Of a DNA stretch of 24,558 nt, positions 6,556-13,914 are shown piece by piece. Position 1 is the stretch's first letter. Each line of letters begins with the position of its first letter. This DNA is from Acutalibacteraceae bacterium. GTDB lineage: Bacteria; Bacillota; Clostridia; Oscillospirales; Acutalibacteraceae. The position numbers and the translations under genes are program-made. Below the pieces are notes generated by a model that made no database searches, was not told the DNA's origin, and saw nothing but the letters and a program-made list of their open reading frames with translations. The stretch covers positions 1 to 24,558 of the forward strand of contig JAZRPX010000190.1 of NCBI GenBank assembly GCA_045649445.1, given 5' to 3'.

Positions 6556-9441
6556 TTATTTTACCTTAACTTTTTGTATTTGACTCCAAGCAGAATAAGC
6601 TTTTTGTTTGCTGTTTACTATCATTGCTCTAGCTTGCACTTGATAATTTCCTTTTTTGAGCTTTTTGATTGTTTTTGTGATACTCTTTTTAGTAGTAACA
6701 TTAACTGTTTTCCATTTTCCTTTAAGTTTGTATCTTATTTGGAATCCTGTTGCACTATCAACTTTTATGTATTTAACTTTAAACTGTTTTTTGCCTTTTG
6801 TGAGTTTGATTTTAGGAACTTTTAAAGTTAATTTAGCAATAATGCTACCGTTTGCGATAGTTTCGTTACAAGTTTCACAAACCGTATCACCAGTGTAACC
6901 ATCTGTAAAGTAGGTAGTTGCTTTTTCGTTTTTAATTACTAATTTATGACCTAATGCATCGATAACTTCTTGTTTAACCAAAACTTCATTGCAAACTGAA
7001 CAATGCTTACCTTCAGTTAAACCAGTTGTAGTGCATGATGGCGCTACTGCTTTGTCTGTAACCTCTGTATGACCAAGTTCTTTAACAACTTCTTGTTTAA
7101 CCAAAACTTCATTGCAAACTGAACAATGTTTACCTTCGGTTAAACCAGTTGTAGTGCATAATGGCGCTACTGCTTTGTCTGTAACCTCTGTATGACCAAG
7201 TTCCTTAACAACTTCTTGTTTAACCAAAACTTCATTGCAAACTGAACAATGCTTGCCTTCAGTTAAACCAGTTGTAGTGCATGATGGCGCTACTGCCTTA
7301 TCTATAACCTCTGTATGACCAAGAGCGGTGTTTTCAATTTTCCTTATATCTGTTTGTGAGCAACGCTCGCATTTTGCTGTTTCTGTTCTGTCTTTTAAAC
7401 ATGTTTCATCATTATTTGAAGTGTAAATTTTAAAATCATGTAAAACACTATACTTGGTTTTGTTTTTTATTAACTCAGTTATTAGTTCTGCATTTTCACA
7501 GTTAACATTTACCGTTACATTATCATCAAAGTTAAATGCATTATATATAATTCTTGTTGAACTTCCGGTAATATTAACGTTTTCTAGTGAATTACAACTC
7601 GCAAAAGCAAGGTCATATATGGTTTGAACTCTTTCCGGTACTGTTATGTTTTTTAACGATTTGCAATACCTAAATGCATAATGCAAGATATAATTTAAAC
7701 TTTCAGGTAAAGTTATTTCTGTTAATGAAGTGCAATTTTCAAATGCACTTTGATATATATCTGTTATACCTTCAGGAATTTTTACATTATCTAATGAGCT
7801 ACACCCACGAAAGGCAAATGAATCTATAAAAGTTACACTATCTGGAATTATAACTGTTTTTAAATTTTTACAATTTTCAAAAGTGCTCATTTCTATTCTC
7901 TTAATGTTATCTGATAATACAACACTTTTCAAGCAATCCCAACCAGAAAAAACAGCGTCGTTGATTTTTTTAATTTGATTTGGAATTATTAAATCAACAG
8001 TTAATTCGTTGTTTATATAAAAATTTTCAGCTTCGCTTAATGGACTTCCGTAACCAGAAAAATTAACATTGCACCATGCATTGAGGTCTGATATATATAC
8101 ATCAGTTAATTCTGGACATTCTTTTAAGGCGTTATTATAAAATTTTTCAACTGATTTAGGAACATGAATTTCTTTTAAAGACTTGCAGTATGCAAACGCT
8201 AATTCGCCAATCTCAATCGTTCCTTCTGGGATTACAATGCTTGTGATTTTATAGCAACCATAAAATCCACCTTCTTCAATAATCTCAAGATTTTTAGGAA
8301 GATTTATTTCAAGTAATGAACAACCATGAAAAGCATCGTTTTCGATTAAAGTTATTCCATCAGGAAGGTTTATTTCTTCTAACGAGTCACAAAGAGAAAA
8401 AGCACAACTTCCTATTGCTTTTACGCTATCAGGGATTTTAATGTCTGTTAATGCTTTGCAACCAGTAAACATTGATGATTCAATTTCTGTTATACCTTCT
8501 GGAATAACAACGTTATTTAACGTTTCACAATGTTCAAAAGCTGCACCATCAATATTTATTACACTTTTAGGTATTTCAATATAAGATAATTTTTTGCATT
8601 TTGAAAATGCACGAATGCCAATACTAATTAAATTTTCGCTAAATGTTATATTTTTCAATTCGTTGCAATTAGCAAATGCATTTATGAAAATGTATTTTAA
8701 ACTTTTAGGCATAACAACACTGGTTAGTTTTTTGCAATCTTGAAATGCTGACTCGGCTATTGTTATTACGCCTTCTTTGATAGTAAATTCGCCTTCGATT
8801 GTTTCTTTTGCTTTAACAAGATAATTGCCAATGTATAAAACATCATTTGCCCAATTGTTTTCATCATTACAATATGAAGTATTGTCAAATGCACCCATTC
8901 CAAAATTTTTAATATTATCAGGCAAGTTAATATTTTTTAAAGAAACACAATTTCTAAAGGCATAATCGCAAAGGGTTTCTAAATTAGAAGGAAATGTAAT
9001 ATCGCATAATTTTTTGCAGTTATCAAATGCATAATAACCAATTGATTTTATGTTTTCAGGCAAAACTATTTTCTCTAATGATGAACACTTTTCAAAAGCA
9101 TAATTATCAATAGTAGTTACTGTATTAGAAATTACTACTTCAGTTAATGAGGTACAGCCAAAAAACGCTTTTTCACTGATATTAGTTACTCCTGATTCAA
9201 TAACAACTTTTTTTATAAGTTCTTGGTCAGAATACCAAGGCCCTTCATATGAAAAGAACATCATCTTACCAGTGCCGCTTATTGTTAATACTCCACTTTC
9301 TTTATCTAATGTCCAAATGATATCACTGTCAAGTGTGCCACACTCTCCCGTTCTTATTTCTGCACTTACGGGAATGCTTACTAAGGTTAGCGTTGATAAA
9401 AACAACACCAAACTTAATAAAATAGATAACACTTTTTTCAT
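6556..9441 (-). CDS. Secreted/surface protein: signal peptide, BspA-type LRRs, Cys/His-rich tandem repeats, basic C-terminal FN3-like domain
   Basis: Signal peptide MKKVLSILLSLVLFLSTLTLVSIPVSA; many 23-aa I.IP.SV..I...AF..C..L repeats; three 41-aa repeats; C-terminal KVPKIKL...ATGFQIRY...YQVQARA; RBS AGGAGG at 9451-9456. Confidence 0.9.
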   Translation of the reverse strand: MKKVLSILLSLVLFLSTLTLVSIPVSAEIRTGECGTLDSDIIWTLDKESGVLTISGTGKMMFFSYEGPWYSDQELIKKVVIESGVTNISEKAFFGCTSLTEVVISNTVTTIDNYAFEKCSSLEKIVLPENIKSIGYYAFDNCKKLCDITFPSNLETLCDYAFRNCVSLKNINLPDNIKNFGMGAFDNTSYCNDENNWANDVLYIGNYLVKAKETIEGEFTIKEGVITIAESAFQDCKKLTSVVMPKSLKYIFINAFANCNELKNITFSENLISIGIRAFSKCKKLSYIEIPKSVINIDGAAFEHCETLNNVVIPEGITEIESSMFTGCKALTDIKIPDSVKAIGSCAFSLCDSLEEINLPDGITLIENDAFHGCSLLEINLPKNLEIIEEGGFYGCYKITSIVIPEGTIEIGELAFAYCKSLKEIHVPKSVEKFYNNALKECPELTDVYISDLNAWCNVNFSGYGSPLSEAENFYINNELTVDLIIPNQIKKINDAVFSGWDCLKSVVLSDNIKRIEMSTFENCKNLKTVIIPDSVTFIDSFAFRGCSSLDNVKIPEGITDIYQSAFENCTSLTEITLPESLNYILHYAFRYCKSLKNITVPERVQTIYDLAFASCNSLENVNITGSSTRIIYNAFNFDDNVTVNVNCENAELITELIKNKTKYSVLHDFKIYTSNNDETCLKDRTETAKCERCSQTDIRKIENTALGHTEVIDKAVAPSCTTTGLTEGKHCSVCNEVLVKQEVVKELGHTEVTDKAVAPLCTTTGLTEGKHCSVCNEVLVKQEVVKELGHTEVTDKAVAPSCTTTGLTEGKHCSVCNEVLVKQEVIDALGHKLVIKNEKATTYFTDGYTGDTVCETCNETIANGSIIAKLTLKVPKIKLTKGKKQFKVKYIKVDSATGFQIRYKLKGKWKTVNVTTKKSITKTIKKLKKGNYQVQARAMIVNSKQKAYSAWSQIQKVKVK
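6955..7323 (-). repeat. Three in-frame 123-bp tandem repeats (41 aa, LGHTEV.DKAVAP.CTTTGLTEGKHCSVCNEVLVKQEV...)
   Basis: Anchor gaccaag/gacctaa recurs at 6948, 7071, 7194 and 7317, exactly 123 bp apart. By eye about 8 differences between the two right-hand copies and about 3 between the two left-hand copies outside the last four codons. Confidence 0.97.
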
Positions 9442-9475
9442 TATTTAATTCCTCCTTTTAAATATTATAATAAAA

Positions 9476-9636
9476 CAAAAAAGTGCGCAACCGAAGCCAC
9501 GCACTCAAAAAACACATGGCTCTGATTGTCGCGACACAAACTACACTTCCCAGACAGGTATGTAAAACGAGCCTGTGCTTTTATCAACAGACAAAAGCAC
9601 ACACCTACCTTAAGAAATCATTCAGTTTATGTCGCA
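9476..9636 (-). ncRNA. Structured leader/small RNA, copy 1 (four-helix rod + intrinsic terminator); family unidentified
   Basis: P1 9635-9624/9542-9531; P2 9618-9611/9552-9545; P3 9610-9606/9560-9556; P4 9601-9590/9585-9574; terminator AGUGCGUGGC-UUCG-GUUGCGCACU-UUUUU (9505-9477). Homologous to 13516-13678. Mismatches on + are G-U pairs on -. Confidence 0.72.
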
Positions 9637-9641
9637 AGAGT

Positions 9642-9670
9642 ATTTTACCATATTATTTTTAATTTTTCAA
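9642..9670 (-). promoter_or_regulatory. sigmaA-type promoter of RNA copy 1
   Basis: TTGAAA(9670-9665), 17 nt, TAAAAT(9647-9642) with extended TG; same position and spacing as in copy 2. Confidence 0.72.
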
Positions 9671-9767
9671 GAGGAATTAAGTTGAGATTTTCTTCACTGT
9701 GCTTCTCTGGATAAAATGAAGGGCTTATTAGTAAAAAAGCCGAATGAGCAAAATAAAGTTTTTTCAT
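9645..9767 (-). CDS. Unannotated 40-aa ORF MKKLYFAHSAFLLISPSFYPEKHSEENLNLIPLEKLKIIW
   Basis: AGGAGG (9780-9775) 7 nt before ATG 9767; lies downstream of a near-consensus promoter (9847-9819); stop TAA at 9647-9645. Below the ORF-track length cutoff. Confidence 0.5.
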   Translation of the reverse strand: MKKLYFAHSAFLLISPSFYPEKHSEENLNLIPLEKLKIIW

Positions 9768-9791
9768 TTCATTTCCTCCTGCTTGATTAAA

Positions 9792-9814
9792 TTGGTATTG
9801 TTTAGCAATACCAA
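9792..9814. repeat. Inverted repeat at the leftward transcription start
   Basis: TTGGTATTG-TTTAG-CAATACCAA, perfect 9-bp arms. Confidence 0.7.
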
Positions 9815-9818
9815 AATC

Positions 9819-9864
9819 ATTATAGCGGAATTTCCGCTAAAAGTCAATAGCGGATTTCCCACTA
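9819..9864 (-). promoter_or_regulatory. Leftward promoter with two 17-bp operators
   Basis: TTGACT(9847-9842), 17 nt, TATAAT(9824-9819). Perfect palindrome TAGCGGAATTTCCGCTA (9823-9839) fills the spacer; second copy TAGCGGATTTCCCACTA (9848-9864, 14/17 identical) lies 25 bp away. Confidence 0.85.
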
Positions 9865-9904
9865 AATATAATATAAGTATATTAATATTTGAGGAGTAGG
9901 GGAT

Positions 9905-10108
9905 ATGTTGTATCGAAGAATCCGTGATTTAAGAGAAGATAAGGATTTAACGCAAAAACAAATGGGGGAAATTTTATCTTGTAGTCAAAGAGTTTATAGT
10001 AATTATGAAAGAGGGGAATTAGATATTCCAACTGAAATTTTAATTAAATTAGCTGACTTTCACAATGTTACAACCGATTATATTTTGAATAGAACAAATA
10101 AAAAATAG
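9905..10108 (+). CDS. Small XRE-family helix-turn-helix regulator
   Basis: RIRDLREDKDLTQKQMGEILSCSQRVYSNYERGELDIPTEILIKLADFHNVTTDYIL is a typical HTH_3 pattern; RBS GAGGAG 9891-9896. Confidence 0.93.
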   Translation: MLYRRIRDLREDKDLTQKQMGEILSCSQRVYSNYERGELDIPTEILIKLADFHNVTTDYILNRTNKK

Positions 10109-10143
10109 AGCAAAAAGAAAAAATTTTCTTTTTGCTCTTTATT
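10108..10143 (+). terminator. Hairpin terminator after XRE gene
   Basis: GAGCAAAAAGAAAA-AA-TTTTCTTTTTGCTC followed by TTTATTT. Confidence 0.7.
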
Positions 10144-10196
10144 TATGTGTAAAACTGTGTTATAATTATTATAATTTTGATATAAAGGTGAAAAAT

Positions 10197-11387
10197 ATGG
10201 ATTATAAATTTACTGAAGCGATTGCTAACCTTGCTCCTTCGGCAATCAGAGAAATTTTAAAATATTCTTCTGTGCCTGGTATGATTTCTTTTGCAGCGGG
10301 AAACCCTTCCCCTGAAGCGTTTCCATCAAAAGATATTCAAAGAATTACAACTGATATTTTAACAAGCAATTCAATCAATGCTTTGCAATATTCAGTTACA
10401 GAAGGTTATGCTCCACTTCGTGATACAATGAAAAAATATATGAGTGAAAAGCATAATTCATTTAACGCAGATATGGATGAGCTTATTATAACTTCAGGCG
10501 CTCAACAGGTTATGGATTTGATGACAAAGGCATTTGTTGAAAAAGGCGATGTTATTATCACTGAAGCTCCTTCGTTTATCGGCTCGCTTAACACTTTCCG
10601 TTCTTATGGCGCAAAACTCGTTGGCGTACCTGTTGATGAAGACGGTATGAATATCGAGAGATTAGAAAAGGCATTACAAGAAAACAAAAACGCTAAATTT
10701 ATTTATACAATTCCGAATTTCCAAAACCCAACAGGTATTACAATGTCAATGGAAAAACGCAAATCGGTTTATAATCTTGCTAAAAAATACGGCGTGTTGA
10801 TTTTGGAAGATAACCCATACGGTGAAATTAGATTTGCAGGCGAGAATTTACCTAATATTAAATCTATGGATACAGAAGGTATTGTTGTTTATGCAGGTTC
10901 ATTCTCAAAAGTGCTTTCTCCTGGTATGCGTGTTGGTTACGCTATCGGAAACAAAACAATTATCGCAAAACTCACAGTTTGTAAGCAAACTTCTGATGTT
11001 CACACAACTATTTTAATGCAAATGGTTACTGATGAGTTTTTGAAACAAACCGATTTTGAAAGCCATCTTGAAATGTTGAGAGGTCTTTATCGTAAAAAGG
11101 CAAACCTTATGATGAGCTTGATGGATGAGCATTTTGGCGATAAAATTACATATCAAAAAACCGAGGGTGGTTTGTTCGTTTGGTGTACATTACCAAAGTC
11201 TGTTGATATGATGGATTTTTGTACTCGTGCAGTTAAAGAGAAAAAAGTAGCGCTTGTTCCAGGAACTGCGTTTTTAATCAACGAAACAGATGAATGCCAC
11301 AATTTTAGAACAAACTATTCAACACCAACCGACGAGCAGTTAGTTAAAGGTATGCAACTTCTCGGCGATTTGGCAAAGGAGATATAA
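10197..11387 (+). CDS. PLP-dependent class I/II aminotransferase (LysN/Aro8-like)
   Basis: ISFAAGNP, ITSGAQQ, IYTIPNFQNPTG, EDNPYGE, GSFSKVLSPGMRVG (PLP lysine). Start ATG 10197 with AAGGTG RBS; extended -10 TGTTATAAT at 10158-10166. Confidence 0.9.
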   Translation: MDYKFTEAIANLAPSAIREILKYSSVPGMISFAAGNPSPEAFPSKDIQRITTDILTSNSINALQYSVTEGYAPLRDTMKKYMSEKHNSFNADMDELIITSGAQQVMDLMTKAFVEKGDVIITEAPSFIGSLNTFRSYGAKLVGVPVDEDGMNIERLEKALQENKNAKFIYTIPNFQNPTGITMSMEKRKSVYNLAKKYGVLILEDNPYGEIRFAGENLPNIKSMDTEGIVVYAGSFSKVLSPGMRVGYAIGNKTIIAKLTVCKQTSDVHTTILMQMVTDEFLKQTDFESHLEMLRGLYRKKANLMMSLMDEHFGDKITYQKTEGGLFVWCTLPKSVDMMDFCTRAVKEKKVALVPGTAFLINETDECHNFRTNYSTPTDEQLVKGMQLLGDLAKEI

Positions 11388-11388
11388 A

Positions 11389-12396
11389 ATGGAATTTTCA
11401 AATGATAAACAAACTATGCTTAGTATGATTAAGCCAACAGGTCATTTTACACTTGGTAATTACCTTGGCGCGCTTAAGAACTGGGTAAAACTTCAAGATG
11501 AATATAACTCAATTTTTGCAGTTGCAGATTTACATGCTATTACTATTAGAATTGAGCCGGCTAAACTTCGTCAGCAAACATTAACCGCTTATGGCATTTT
11601 AAACGCAATCGGTTTAGATCCGGAAAAGAGCTTGATGTTTATTCAATCAACTGTTCCTGCTCATGCAGAACTTTCTTGGATTTTATCTTGCTATGCGCAA
11701 TATGGTGAAATGCAAAGAATGACACAGTTTAAAGATAAATCTAAAAAAGCGCCTGATAATGTGAATTTAGGTCTTTTCTCTTATCCATCTCTTATGAATG
11801 CAGATATTCTTTTGTATGGCGCTGATGTTGTCCCTGTTGGTGTTGACCAGAAGCAACATGTTGAACTTTGCAGAACAGTTGCAAATAGATTTAATGGAAT
11901 TTATGGTGACACTTTTAAAGTGCCTGAACCAATTATTCCAAAGGTTGGCGCAAAGATTATGAGTTTGCAAAATCCAACTGAAAAAATGGGTAAATCTGAT
12001 ACTAATGAAAACGCTTATGTAAAAATTCTTGATGACCCTGATACAATTATGCGCAAATTCAAACGCGCAGTAACTGACTCGGAAGCGAGAGTTTATTTTG
12101 GTGATGCAACCGAAAAAGCAGGTATTAACAATCTTATGACTATTTACTCTGCAGTTACAGGCCTTGATTTTGAAAAAATCGAGAAAGAGTTTGAAGGGAA
12201 AGGTTATGGTGACTTTAAAGTTGCAGTTGCCGAAGCAGTTATTGAAGAATTGCGCCCTATTAGAGAGCGTTTTGATGAATTGATGAGTGATAAAGCGCAA
12301 CTTGAAGCAATGTATAAACAGGGTGCAGAAGAAGCATCATACTTGGCAAGAAAAACTTTATCAAAAGTAAAACGCAAAGTAGGATTTGTAAAATAG
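11389..12396 (+). CDS. trpS: Tryptophan--tRNA ligase
   Basis: PTGHFTLGNYLGA (HIGH-like), YPSLMNADILLY, VPVGVDQKQHVEL, KMGKS (KMSKS-like). Confidence 0.96.
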   Translation: MEFSNDKQTMLSMIKPTGHFTLGNYLGALKNWVKLQDEYNSIFAVADLHAITIRIEPAKLRQQTLTAYGILNAIGLDPEKSLMFIQSTVPAHAELSWILSCYAQYGEMQRMTQFKDKSKKAPDNVNLGLFSYPSLMNADILLYGADVVPVGVDQKQHVELCRTVANRFNGIYGDTFKVPEPIIPKVGAKIMSLQNPTEKMGKSDTNENAYVKILDDPDTIMRKFKRAVTDSEARVYFGDATEKAGINNLMTIYSAVTGLDFEKIEKEFEGKGYGDFKVAVAEAVIEELRPIRERFDELMSDKAQLEAMYKQGAEEASYLARKTLSKVKRKVGFVK

Positions 12397-12408
12397 AAAG
12401 GGAATTTT

Positions 12409-13188
12409 ATGAGAATTTTAGCGCTTGGCGATGTTGTCGGCAGTGTTGGTTGCAATGCGCTTGAGAAAGTTTTGCCAAGATTAAAGGCAGACAAAAACAT
12501 TGATTTTTGTGTTGCAAATGGTGAAAACTCGGCAGACGGAAACGGAACTTTATCACAAAGTGCCGAAATGCTTTTTTCGATCGGTGTTGATGTTATCACA
12601 GGTGGAAATCATACTTATCGTCGCCCTGAATTTTTGCCTTATCTAGATGAAAATGAGTTTATTATTCGCCCTGCAAACTTTCCTGATAACGCAGCAGGCG
12701 AGGGCAGTTGTGTTTATGATATGGGTAGATGCAAGGTCGGTGTTATAAACCTTTTAGGTGTTGTTTATTTAGAGCCATTAGCAAACCCGTTTGAAACAGT
12801 AGATAAAGAAATTGAAAAGTTGAAAGATGAAAATTGCAACATCATTTTAGTTGATTTTCATGCAGAAGCAACGAGTGAGAAAAAAGCAATGGGCTTTTAT
12901 GTTGATGGCAAAGTTTCGGCGCTTTTTGGTACGCATACTCATATTCAAACAAATGATTTGCAAATTCTTGAAAACGGCACAGGGTATATAACTGATCTTG
13001 GAATGTGTGGACCAAAAAATTCGGTTTTAGGCGTAAAACCTGAAATTATAATTTATAAATTAAAAAATCACCTTCCTGCAAGATTTGAAAATGCAGAAGG
13101 TGAGTGTATTATAAACGGCGCAATTTTCGATGTTGACGAAAAAAGCGGTAAATGTTTAAATACAGAAACAATTTCAATTGAAATATAA
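12409..13188 (+). CDS. ymdB: YmdB-like metallophosphoesterase (TIGR00282 type)
   Basis: GDVVG, NGENSA, TGGNH, RPANF, DFHAEATSEK, GTHTHIQT, TDLGMCG. Confidence 0.93.
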   Translation: MRILALGDVVGSVGCNALEKVLPRLKADKNIDFCVANGENSADGNGTLSQSAEMLFSIGVDVITGGNHTYRRPEFLPYLDENEFIIRPANFPDNAAGEGSCVYDMGRCKVGVINLLGVVYLEPLANPFETVDKEIEKLKDENCNIILVDFHAEATSEKKAMGFYVDGKVSALFGTHTHIQTNDLQILENGTGYITDLGMCGPKNSVLGVKPEIIIYKLKNHLPARFENAEGECIINGAIFDVDEKSGKCLNTETISIEI

Positions 13189-13218
13189 AAACGAGTTCCT
13201 TTTGGAACTCGATTTTTT
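13187..13218. terminator. Bidirectional terminator (GAGTTC/GAACTC family)
   Basis: AAAAA-CGAGTTCC-TTTT-GGAACTCG-ATTTTTT between convergent ymdB and the 92-aa gene. Confidence 0.85.
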
Positions 13219-13495
13219 ATACCACAAAACCATCATTATTCATTGATTCATAAGCCATTCTTGACCCTAAACTATACCCATCTGTAAACACAATCTTTTC
13301 CCAAATAGTTGTCATTTCACTGTGGCTTTCTTTATACTTTTCAAATTGTTCTTTTTGCTTATCTGAAAGCATATTAAGAAATTTTTCTTCGTTTTTATCA
13401 ACAAGTTGCATTGCTTCTTTTAGTTGTTTGTTTTCTGCAATAGAGCGCTCGTTAACCGAAATGTTTCCATAAAATAATTCTTCTAAAACTTTCAT
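13217..13495 (-). CDS. Small hypothetical protein resembling DUF6809 family
   Basis: MKVLEELFYGNI N-terminus and F..GYSLGSRMAYE C-terminus match my recollection of DUF6809; RBS GGAGG 13509-13505. Confidence 0.65.
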   Translation of the reverse strand: MKVLEELFYGNISVNERSIAENKQLKEAMQLVDKNEEKFLNMLSDKQKEQFEKYKESHSEMTTIWEKIVFTDGYSLGSRMAYESMNNDGFVV

Positions 13496-13515
13496 TTAAA
13501 AATTCCTCCAAAAAT

Positions 13516-13678
13516 AAAAAAGTGCGCAAGCAGAGCTTACGCACAAAAAACGCATTGCTCCAATTGCTGCGACACAAGTTTTCGACCAAACATAAGAGAA
13601 TGTTGAAAAAGAGCATGCGTTTTTATGAAAAACAAAAACACACTCTCCGTTGTTTGATCATATTAACTTATGTCGCAA
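13516..13678 (-). ncRNA. Structured leader/small RNA, copy 2
   Basis: P1 13677-13665/13580-13568; P2 GAUCAAACA/UGUUUGGUC; P3 GGAGAGUG/CAUUCUCU; P4 UGUUUUUG/UAAAAACG; terminator GUGCGUAAGC-UCU-GCUUGCGCAC-UUUUUU (13544-13516). Confidence 0.72.
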
Positions 13679-13682
13679 TAAT

Positions 13683-13711
13683 ATTTTAACATATTACTAT
13701 TATTTTTGCAA
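13683..13711 (-). promoter_or_regulatory. sigmaA-type promoter of RNA copy 2
   Basis: TTGCAA(13711-13706), 17 nt, TAAAAT(13688-13683) with extended TG. Confidence 0.75.
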
Positions 13712-13740
13712 GATTTTTTTAAGATTCTTTGCTTTTATAC

Positions 13741-13764
13741 GGCGGCACCAAGGCACCGCCCTAC
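13741..13764 (-). repeat. GTAG-type REP-like hairpin
   Basis: Minus strand reads GTAG-GGCGGTGCC-TT-GGTGCCGCC: GTAG tetranucleotide plus a GC-rich imperfect hairpin. Confidence 0.6.
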
Positions 13765-13784
13765 GAATGACACGCACCACCCTT

Positions 13785-13851
13785 GTCATCCTGAGCGGAG
13801 CAACGCGTAGTCGAAGGATCTTAAAGATGGTTCGGCTACGCTCACCATGAC
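13785..13851. repeat. Inverted pair of GTCAT-type REP-like elements (REPIN-like unit)
   Basis: GTCATCCTGAGCG...TAGTCGAAGGATCT facing AGATGGTTCGGCTACGCTCACCATGAC; each arm has its own internal stem (ATCCT/AGGAT versus ATGGT/ACCAT). Confidence 0.7.
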
Positions 13852-13876
13852 GTATAAGTAGATTATAGACAAATTT

Positions 13877-13914
13877 AAAACACACGGGTTGAATTTCAAC
13901 CCGTGTGTTTTTTT
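13877..13914. terminator. Intrinsic terminator at the end of the catabolic operon
   Basis: AAAACACACGGGTTGAA-T-TTCAACCCGTGTGTTTT, perfect 17-bp arms abutting the MBL stop codon. Confidence 0.9.

Follow-up and report, generated by a model that had tools for sequence, protein, structure and literature searches.

The window analysed here, a 24,558-nucleotide (nt) contig from an Acutalibacteraceae bacterium (JAZRPX010000190.1), carries on its minus strand two diverged copies of a structured element of ~160 nt, each with what looked like its own promoter and terminator. The locus raises the question of whether this element works as an RNA and, if so, whether it controls the gene behind it or acts elsewhere; the preliminary description had proposed either a cis-regulatory attenuator or an independent sRNA. 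We found that the element is a leader belonging to a widespread RNA family of gut and rumen Clostridia that is absent from Rfam 15. As judged from its sequences, the family is cis-regulatory, of the attenuator/riboswitch type, with a four-tier terminator-switch logic.

Both copies have the same parts in the same order: a −35 box, a 17-nt spacer, an extended −10 element (TGnTAAAAT), 5 to 6 bases, GCGACAUAA, a long interrupted hairpin closed by UUGUGUCGC, a linker, GAGC.AUG.G followed by U6, and a GC-rich hairpin with a U-tract. The ribosome-binding site of the downstream gene (the cargo) lies within 6 to 25 nt after the leader in both, and each copy is a single-gene insertion amid housekeeping genes. 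The two minus-strand promoters originally claimed (TTGMAA-17-TAAAAT) were both found by an independent promoter scan, with the TG extension, and a terminator scan likewise found both claimed terminators, each with a U-tract.

Copy A (leader RNA at 9477 to 9637, minus strand, like all features of the two copies given below) folds as a rod of four helices, after which come a tail and an intrinsic terminator. Its −35 box, TTGAAA (9665 to 9670), and its extended −10 element, TGgTAAAAT (9642 to 9650), are separated by 17 nt and were recognized both in the sequence and by the promoter scan, and an equivalent −35 box is equally placed in 89/89 family members; the promoter spacing implies that transcription starts at about 9635, the first G of P1. 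The 5′ strand of P1, UGCGACAUAAACUG (9623 to 9636), and its 3′ strand, UAGUUUGUGUCGCG (9530 to 9543), pair as GCGACAUAAACU/AGUUUGUGUCGC, as indicated by the fold and by covariation (pair 11-98, z = 31; pair 4-105, z = 16). An asymmetric J1/2 bulge, AAUGAUUU, and the 5′ strands of P2 and P3 occupy 9600 to 9622 (P2/P3 pairs, z = 10 to 25), and covariation places the 3′ strands of P3 and P2 at 9545 to 9560. The fold assigns UGUGCUUUUGUC (9590 to 9601) to the 5′ strand of P4, which we call a (duplex a:b1, −4.6 kcal/mol in the own-versus-cross test described below), and the P4 3′ strand together with a GGCUC bulge constitutes b1 (9568 to 9585), the alternative partner of the tail (b1:tail duplex, −19.0 kcal/mol). 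The linker, switching tail, and first U-run (ACAAUC AGAGCCAUGUG UUUUUU; 9507 to 9529) can pair with b1 or with the 5′ half of the terminator, GUGCGUGGC UUCG GUUGCGCAC, which the terminator scan located with its U-tract at 9477 to 9506 (hairpin, 9506 to 9481). The minimum free energy (MFE) of copy A is −66.5 kcal/mol (z = −6.75; 0/200 shuffles fold equally well), and the antiterminator is part of this predicted fold. The cargo region (6556 to 9456) comprises an AGGAGG ribosome-binding site (9451 to 9456) and an open reading frame (ORF; 6556 to 9441) for a 961-amino-acid secreted BspA-type LRR protein (Pfam LRR_5, E = 1e-146). A further promoter-like site, TTGACT-17-TATAAT (11/12), lies at 9819 to 9847 (−), ~150 nt upstream of the copy A promoter; it is flanked by small inverted repeats and faces a divergent gene for a 67-amino-acid XRE helix-turn-helix (HTH) protein at 9905 to 10108 (+). 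This site is the stronger of the two, and copy A may therefore also be transcribed from farther upstream.

Copy B (leader RNA at 13516 to 13678) is likewise a four-helix rod with a tail and an intrinsic terminator. Its promoter, TTGCAA-17-TGtTAAAAT (13683 to 13711), was recognized in the sequence and by the promoter scan, and the predicted fold and the family alignment place the rod at 13568 to 13677, with P1 formed by 13664 to 13677 and 13568 to 13581 (GCGACAUAAGUU/AACUUGUGUCGC), P4 formed by 13633 to 13644 and 13616 to 13627, and b1 at 13610 to 13626. The linker, switching tail, and U-run (GCAAUU GGAGCAAUGCG UUUUUU) extend from 13545 to 13567 (b1:tail duplex, −18.7 kcal/mol), and the terminator, detected by folding and by the terminator scan, occupies 13516 to 13544 with its U-tract (hairpin, 13544 to 13522). 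The MFE is −61.3 kcal/mol (z = −7.25), again with 0/200 shuffles folding equally well. The cargo (13217 to 13495) is a 92-amino-acid DUF6809 protein (PF20648, E = 2e-21), and a weak CRISPR-DR42 match (27.6 bits, E = 0.68) falls within its coding region at 13463 to 13489 (+), which we take to be a chance match because it is a single copy without an array. Just upstream of copy B, at 13784 to 13865, is a dispersed GC-rich repeat of ~80 nt that also lies just upstream of the third leader copy described below (C250:2116-2195) and occurs in at least 20 places in this 33% GC genome; it has no Rfam match, and its fold is unexceptional (z = −1.6).

BLAST and a pattern search revealed a third copy (copy C) on contig C250 of the same assembly, which is a metagenome-assembled genome (MAG) of 1.75 Mb that has 33% GC and is 83% complete. 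Copy C lies upstream of a second DUF6809 gene, and in its P1, GCG/CGC has become GCA/UGC with pairing kept. A covariance model (R1) built from these three own-genome copies recovered a large family: there are not two copies, as first thought, but at least five in this genome and hundreds elsewhere. With R1, the leader was found in 31/101 genomes of relatives, in a dozen families of the order and with up to 9 copies, and in 37/150 genomes of a sample of the class, in which 19 candidates per genome were scored and the copy number reached at least 18 per genome. The same model found it in 0 of ~147 genomes from other classes of the phylum. An exact-pattern scan of the GTDB species genomes gave at least 120 matches, and all of those named among the matches listed are gut or rumen Clostridia MAGs, including Oscillospiraceae, Acutalibacteraceae, Ruminococcus, Ruminiclostridium, Monoglobus, Faecousia, and Christensenellaceae. 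The sequencing runs listed as sharing words with the window include no RNA run; the DNA runs, with small word shares, are from ruminant and other gut metagenomes.

At the gathering score, Rfam 15 gave nothing overlapping a leader in the window or in 17 other members, in agreement with the initial impression that the element was not recognizable as a T-box or a common riboswitch and with no strong match that would remove its novelty; at an E value of ≤10, positions 9300 to 13900 of the window gave chance-level matches only, none of them spanning the element. We found no published description in the literature on DUF6809, on BspA with riboswitches, on microbiome structured-RNA surveys, or on the conserved 9-mers, and the P1 strings are absent from the first 200 of the 408 supplementary files of Fremin and Bhatt (2021).

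The leader pattern also matches 13 IMG/VR contigs and 2 GenBank "Bacteriophage sp." records. One of the latter, the virome-derived MT835845.1 ("UNVERIFIED: Bacteriophage sp."; L193), encodes YicC, methionine gamma-lyase, M42 peptidases, a LysR regulator, and an Fe-only hydrogenase, a gene content that is that of bacterial chromosomal DNA, and we rejected it as a phage carrying a leader. In an IMG/VR UViG (L187; region with 7647-7720 (−) and 7994-9040 (−)), the order is integrase, tRNA, and leader with a lipoprotein gene, and the leader may lie in the host flank of a prophage because it is beyond the tRNA gene that adjoins the integrase. Phage carriage of the leader is thus unsupported in the two cases examined.

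In the family, P1 comprises 12 to 14 bp, the first 9 of which are nearly invariant in sequence (GCSACAYAA/UUGUGUSGC), and beyond it come an asymmetric 5′ bulge of ~AAUAUU, in which we saw by inspection no GA/AG signature of a K-turn at J1/2, and then P2 and P3, of 8 bp each, which are conserved as structure and not as sequence. The apex of the rod has a 13-nt 3′ bulge starting (U)GCUCU, followed by P4, which is ~12 bp long and U5/A5 rich. In a model alignment of 89 sequences, 92.7% of the cells were paired (76.8% in shuffles), double-sided changes occurred at 42/55 pairs and in 775 cells (218 in shuffles), and the covariation score was 0.50, compared with 0.21 in shuffles and 0.04 to 0.08 in slid registers; these covariation statistics ignore the kinship of the sequences, and negative-control pairings were used in place of a tree correction. 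When all column pairs were scanned by MI-APC, which is blind to the structure, the top-ranked pairs all fell within P1 to P4 (z = 8 to 31). We also compared the duplex energy of each sequence's own segments with that obtained with the partner segments of 20 other family members (the own-versus-cross test), and the own duplex had an advantage of 6.3 kcal/mol for P1, 4.6 kcal/mol for P4, and 3.7 kcal/mol for P3. The compensatory changes that the preliminary description had cited in P1 and P4 are correct and held up in the 89-sequence alignment, and it had rightly noted that the G-U wobbles work on one strand only: U-G pairs, such as those in 26/89 sequences at P1 position 9/308, exist solely when the minus strand is read.

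Downstream of the rod, the conserved GAGC.AUG.GUUUUUU motif has the part of a switching strand and not of a spacer. This tail, with the consensus GGAGYUAUGCRUUUUU, has two covarying partners: b1, which comprises the P4 3′ strand and the GCUCU bulge beside it, or a segment of the terminator made up of its 5′ half (T5), the loop, and the start of its 3′ half (T3). Five segments, a|b1|tail|T5|T3, are thus strung together so that each may pair with the one before or the one after it, and the resulting helices exclude one another. MI-APC detected the tail:T5 antiterminator (pair 115-144, z = 9.7, and others), the terminator (pair 136-151, z = 5.1), and b1:tail (pair 61-124, z = 4.2; pair 53-131, z = 5.4), and the antiterminator was also predicted by RNAalifold and is 95.5% paired (helix 9 in the 89-sequence alignment). 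In the own-versus-cross test, the advantage was 2.9 kcal/mol for b1:tail (P = 3e-14), 2.4 kcal/mol for tail:T5 (P = 9e-13), and 3.2 kcal/mol for T5:T3, and the difference was ~0 for four control pairings (b2:tail, a:T5, b1:T3, and P1-5′:T5). The P1 strands and the terminator strands have a constant complementarity of ~−8 kcal/mol without covariation. In L011, a variant from the same genome that has a long insert, b1 and the tail still match in a perfect 15-bp duplex, made up of other letters. The mean nearest-neighbor energies were −60.2 kcal/mol for the rod plus antiterminator (ON) and −62.1 kcal/mol for the rod plus terminator; b1:tail plus terminator, a state beyond MFE programs, had a mean of −71.0 kcal/mol before any pseudoknot penalty. 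The family thus has what defines a generic intrinsic-terminator attenuator, namely, a GC-rich hairpin with a U-tract directly before the gene, with T5 open to capture by an alternative helix.

The position of the leader relative to the promoter and the gene is as regular as its fold. A TTGaca-17-TGnTAtAAT promoter is present at a constant distance in 89/89 leaders with checkable upstream sequence, and this fixed distance puts the probable +1 position of the family near the first G of P1. After 106/115 leaders, an ORF with a Shine-Dalgarno site follows in the same orientation, a median of 22 nt past the U-tract, which leaves no room for another promoter, so that the gene should be expressible only by readthrough. 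Together with the covariation of the antiterminator against the terminator, these downstream ORFs support the earlier suggestion of a cis-regulatory attenuator. At some loci (L173 [G182:C6:110850-113200], L174, and L175 to L179), two or three whole units of promoter, leader, and terminator stand in tandem before a single gene, ~50 nt apart and with no ORF between them. Tandem arrangements are known for riboswitches and attenuators.

The genes behind the leaders are diverse and unrelated, and their products are often surface or secreted proteins. Among 104 downstream proteins, there are 17 with BspA-type LRR_5, 6 of the XRE HTH type, and several zinc-ribbon membrane proteins, but the majority belong to no Pfam family. 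By rough heuristics, 46/106 cargoes have signal-like N termini, 20 of these with a lipobox, and 24/106 are shorter than 100 amino acids. DUF6809 accounts for 2/104 cargoes, both from the genome studied here, and we rejected it as an autoregulatory partner of the leader, since it is present in 16/31 RNA-positive and 24/70 RNA-negative relatives and is so rare among the cargoes: DUF6809 is a cargo and not a cofactor. Many related genomes have several DUF6809 genes (as many as 7 each), and the genus includes at least one further species (G009:C58) in which a DUF6809 gene lies directly behind a leader.

Taken together, the leader appears designed to turn transcription on or off upon a signal, and we consider it likely that each copy is a self-contained promoter-plus-leader module in which a terminator, an antiterminator, and an anti-antiterminator make up a cis-acting transcription attenuator. 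A near-consensus sigma-A promoter with an extended −10 element would start the RNA at the first base of P1, and the RNA would fold into the rod P1-P2-P3-P4, P4 presumably forming first. In the ON state, P4 would stay intact and the tail would pair with T5, the loop, and the first bases of T3 as the antiterminator, allowing polymerase to read into the gene ~20 nt on. In the OFF state, the tail would invade P4 to form b1:tail, a pseudoknot-type anti-antiterminator, T5:T3 would terminate transcription, and a stable RNA of ~160 nt would be released. The emerging tail, through its GGAG(C/U), may seed on the single-stranded GCUCU bulge, which would act as a toehold, and branch-migrate into P4; at the conserved U-run right behind the tail, polymerase could pause and so fix the time available. 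OFF would be the ground state and the likely default, and for ON some factor would have to keep the rod or P4 stable, or the toehold covered, while polymerase moves past the terminator. A macromolecular effector, such as a protein that binds the RNA or the transcription machinery itself (through pausing at the first U-run, for instance), seems somewhat more likely than a small-molecule ligand because the alternative helices explain almost every conserved nucleotide and leave no obvious ligand pocket. Spanning a rod of ~30 bp with a linker of only 7 nt, the pseudoknot formed by b1:tail could coexist sterically with P1 to P3 only if the large asymmetric J1/2 bulge lets P2-P3 fold back along P1; we speculate that such a fold-back is feasible, P1 (12 to 14 bp) being about as long as P2 plus P3 (~16 bp). 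The attenuator model leaves the strong sequence conservation of P1 (GCSACAYAA/UUGUGUSGC) unexplained.

Other readings give these observations a different weight. Many copies per genome, P1 arms that form a long terminal inverted repeat, single-gene cassettes between housekeeping genes, and another dispersed GC-rich repeat adjoining two of the cassettes could all suggest a DNA-level repeat, either a MITE-like palindrome or a mobile promoter cassette, with the hairpins as a by-product. We regard this as highly improbable: pairing is kept through G-U pairs that exist on one strand only and through hundreds of double-sided changes, the orientation to the downstream gene and the distance to its start codon are fixed, and conservation runs only from the −35 box to the U-tract, with P2 and P3 preserved as structure and not as sequence. 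The covariation largely refutes such a repeat, and the strand-specific RNA pairing constraint that a MITE or palindromic repeat would lack is present here. That the terminated ~160-nt RNA is itself a functional trans-acting sRNA, with readthrough incidental or secondary, is distinctly unlikely, given that the downstream gene has no room for a promoter of its own (median, 22 nt), that no conserved single-stranded seed region is evident, and that the antiterminator and anti-antiterminator covary inside each copy, which makes sense only for a decision in cis. An sRNA would nevertheless fit the strong promoter and terminator of each unit, the terminal 5′ and 3′ hairpins, which would stabilize the RNA, and the tandem units without an ORF between them, and the Brt RNAs of Bartonella, which have the same layout, were proposed to act both in cis and in trans (PMC5387305). 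Of the original pair of proposals, then, the cis part has stood, and the tandem units leave scope for a trans role of the terminated RNA in addition.

The family could also be a small-molecule or second-messenger riboswitch in which a ligand stabilizes the pseudoknotted b1:tail fold and turns transcription off, with the U5 strand displaced from P4 possibly forming a U-A-U triplex in the groove of the A5:U5 tract. Pseudoknots of the SAM-II and preQ1-II types have a triplex in the groove, and three conserved homopolymer runs in the leader, U5 (P4 5′ strand), A5 (P4 3′ strand), and U5-6 (after the tail), would suit such a fold; the closeness in energy of the ON and OFF states and the resemblance of the many copies, tandem units, and surface- and secreted-rich cargo to second-messenger regulons point the same way. 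Against this, the alternative helices leave no invariant unpaired block beyond AU-rich bulges, the cargo genes indicate no metabolite, and c-di-GMP specifically is excluded by the absence of GGDEF proteins from this genome and from 23/31 RNA-positive relatives, so that we think a riboswitch of this kind unlikely. A broader proposal, that the family is a new riboswitch-like class of sensors acting in gut and rumen Clostridia as a genome-wide switch of the surface and secreted proteome, whether through a triplex-pseudoknot aptamer for some signal molecule or through a factor-free cotranscriptional strand-displacement cascade that reads polymerase speed or pausing (NTP or alarmone) at the U-run, is tentative and, in our estimation, rather doubtful.

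Should the attenuator model be true, many abundant and for the most part uncultured Clostridia of the gut and rumen (Oscillospiraceae, Acutalibacteraceae, and Ruminococcus-like MAGs) would each have from 5 to more than 18 genes under the control of one uncatalogued RNA device. Many of the controlled genes would be those for BspA-type LRR surface proteins, lipoproteins, small membrane proteins, and XRE regulators, the products of which face the host, phages, and other microbes. With the trigger of the switch identified, a new regulon would be defined, and a new ligand or RNA-binding regulator might come with it. The tiered strand exchange, with four mutually exclusive helices and a candidate toehold bulge, would be an unusually clear natural case of cotranscriptional strand displacement, and the compact promoter-plus-leader module would be a ready-made part for genetic tools in poorly tractable anaerobes.

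Several known systems resemble the family in part. According to Tu et al. (2016; PMC5387305), the Brt RNAs of Bartonella henselae are multicopy structured RNAs of ~200 nt upstream of Trp (XRE-type) genes; they lie immediately before poorly expressed genes for small regulators and are hypothesized to combine a cis-acting, riboswitch-like leader with a trans-acting sRNA. As there described, they share with the family the multicopy occurrence, the high degree of structure, and the position directly upstream of genes; they differ in being genus specific, in the Alphaproteobacteria, and in that their cargo is always an HTH protein, whereas XRE proteins make up 6/104 cargoes here.

Like the family, T-box leaders have a long 5′ stem domain and then competing antiterminator and terminator helices directly before the gene. 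The cargo here does not consist of aminoacyl-tRNA synthetase or amino acid genes, and a T-box leader was rejected, with no RF00230 match and the T-box motif absent from 89/89 leaders at ≤3 mismatches. RAT and TRAP motifs are absent from the leaders as well. A leader-peptide attenuator was also rejected: the tail has an AUG in 53/89 leaders, with GGAG 2 nt away, and an in-leader stop follows in 6/53. The c-di-GMP-I and -II riboswitches share with the family many copies, tandem arrangement, surface, adhesin, and secreted genes as cargo, and terminator platforms. The genome studied here gave no match to RF01786 and none to RF01051, the latter a search that is weak by itself as its controls were likewise silent, and GGDEF is absent from it and from 23/31 RNA-positive relatives, many of them 97 to 99% complete. 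We excluded c-di-GMP as the ligand because most RNA-positive genomes are without any GGDEF cyclase and no riboswitch model matched. Leader-positive genomes tend to be without GGDEF diguanylate cyclases, which are present in 8/31 of them and in 43/70 leader-negative relatives; as the genomes are related to one another, these counts do not amount to a statistical test.

In the H-type pseudoknot riboswitches (SAM-II, preQ1-II, and ZTP), as in this family, a 3′ strand pairs back into the loop of an upstream hairpin in competition with the expression platform. The distance between the partners is much greater here (a rod of ~30 bp), the alternative helix is 15 to 20 bp long, and we found no conserved ligand-pocket nucleotides and no Rfam matches. 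The pyr operon leaders of Bacillus subtilis, controlled by PyrR, exemplify attenuation by a terminator, an antiterminator, and an anti-antiterminator. A PyrR-type attenuator as such was rejected, since the PyrR-binding core, UCCAGAGAGG, is absent from 89/89 leaders at ≤1 mismatch and no pyr genes are among the 104 cargoes. In the pyr leaders, and in this family as proposed here, an upstream structure sequesters the antiterminator strand, which leads to an intrinsic terminator just before the gene. In comparison with the pyr leaders, the family described here adds a fourth tier, in which the P4 5′ strand competes for b1, and it has a promoter at a fixed distance and 5 to 18 or more copies per genome.
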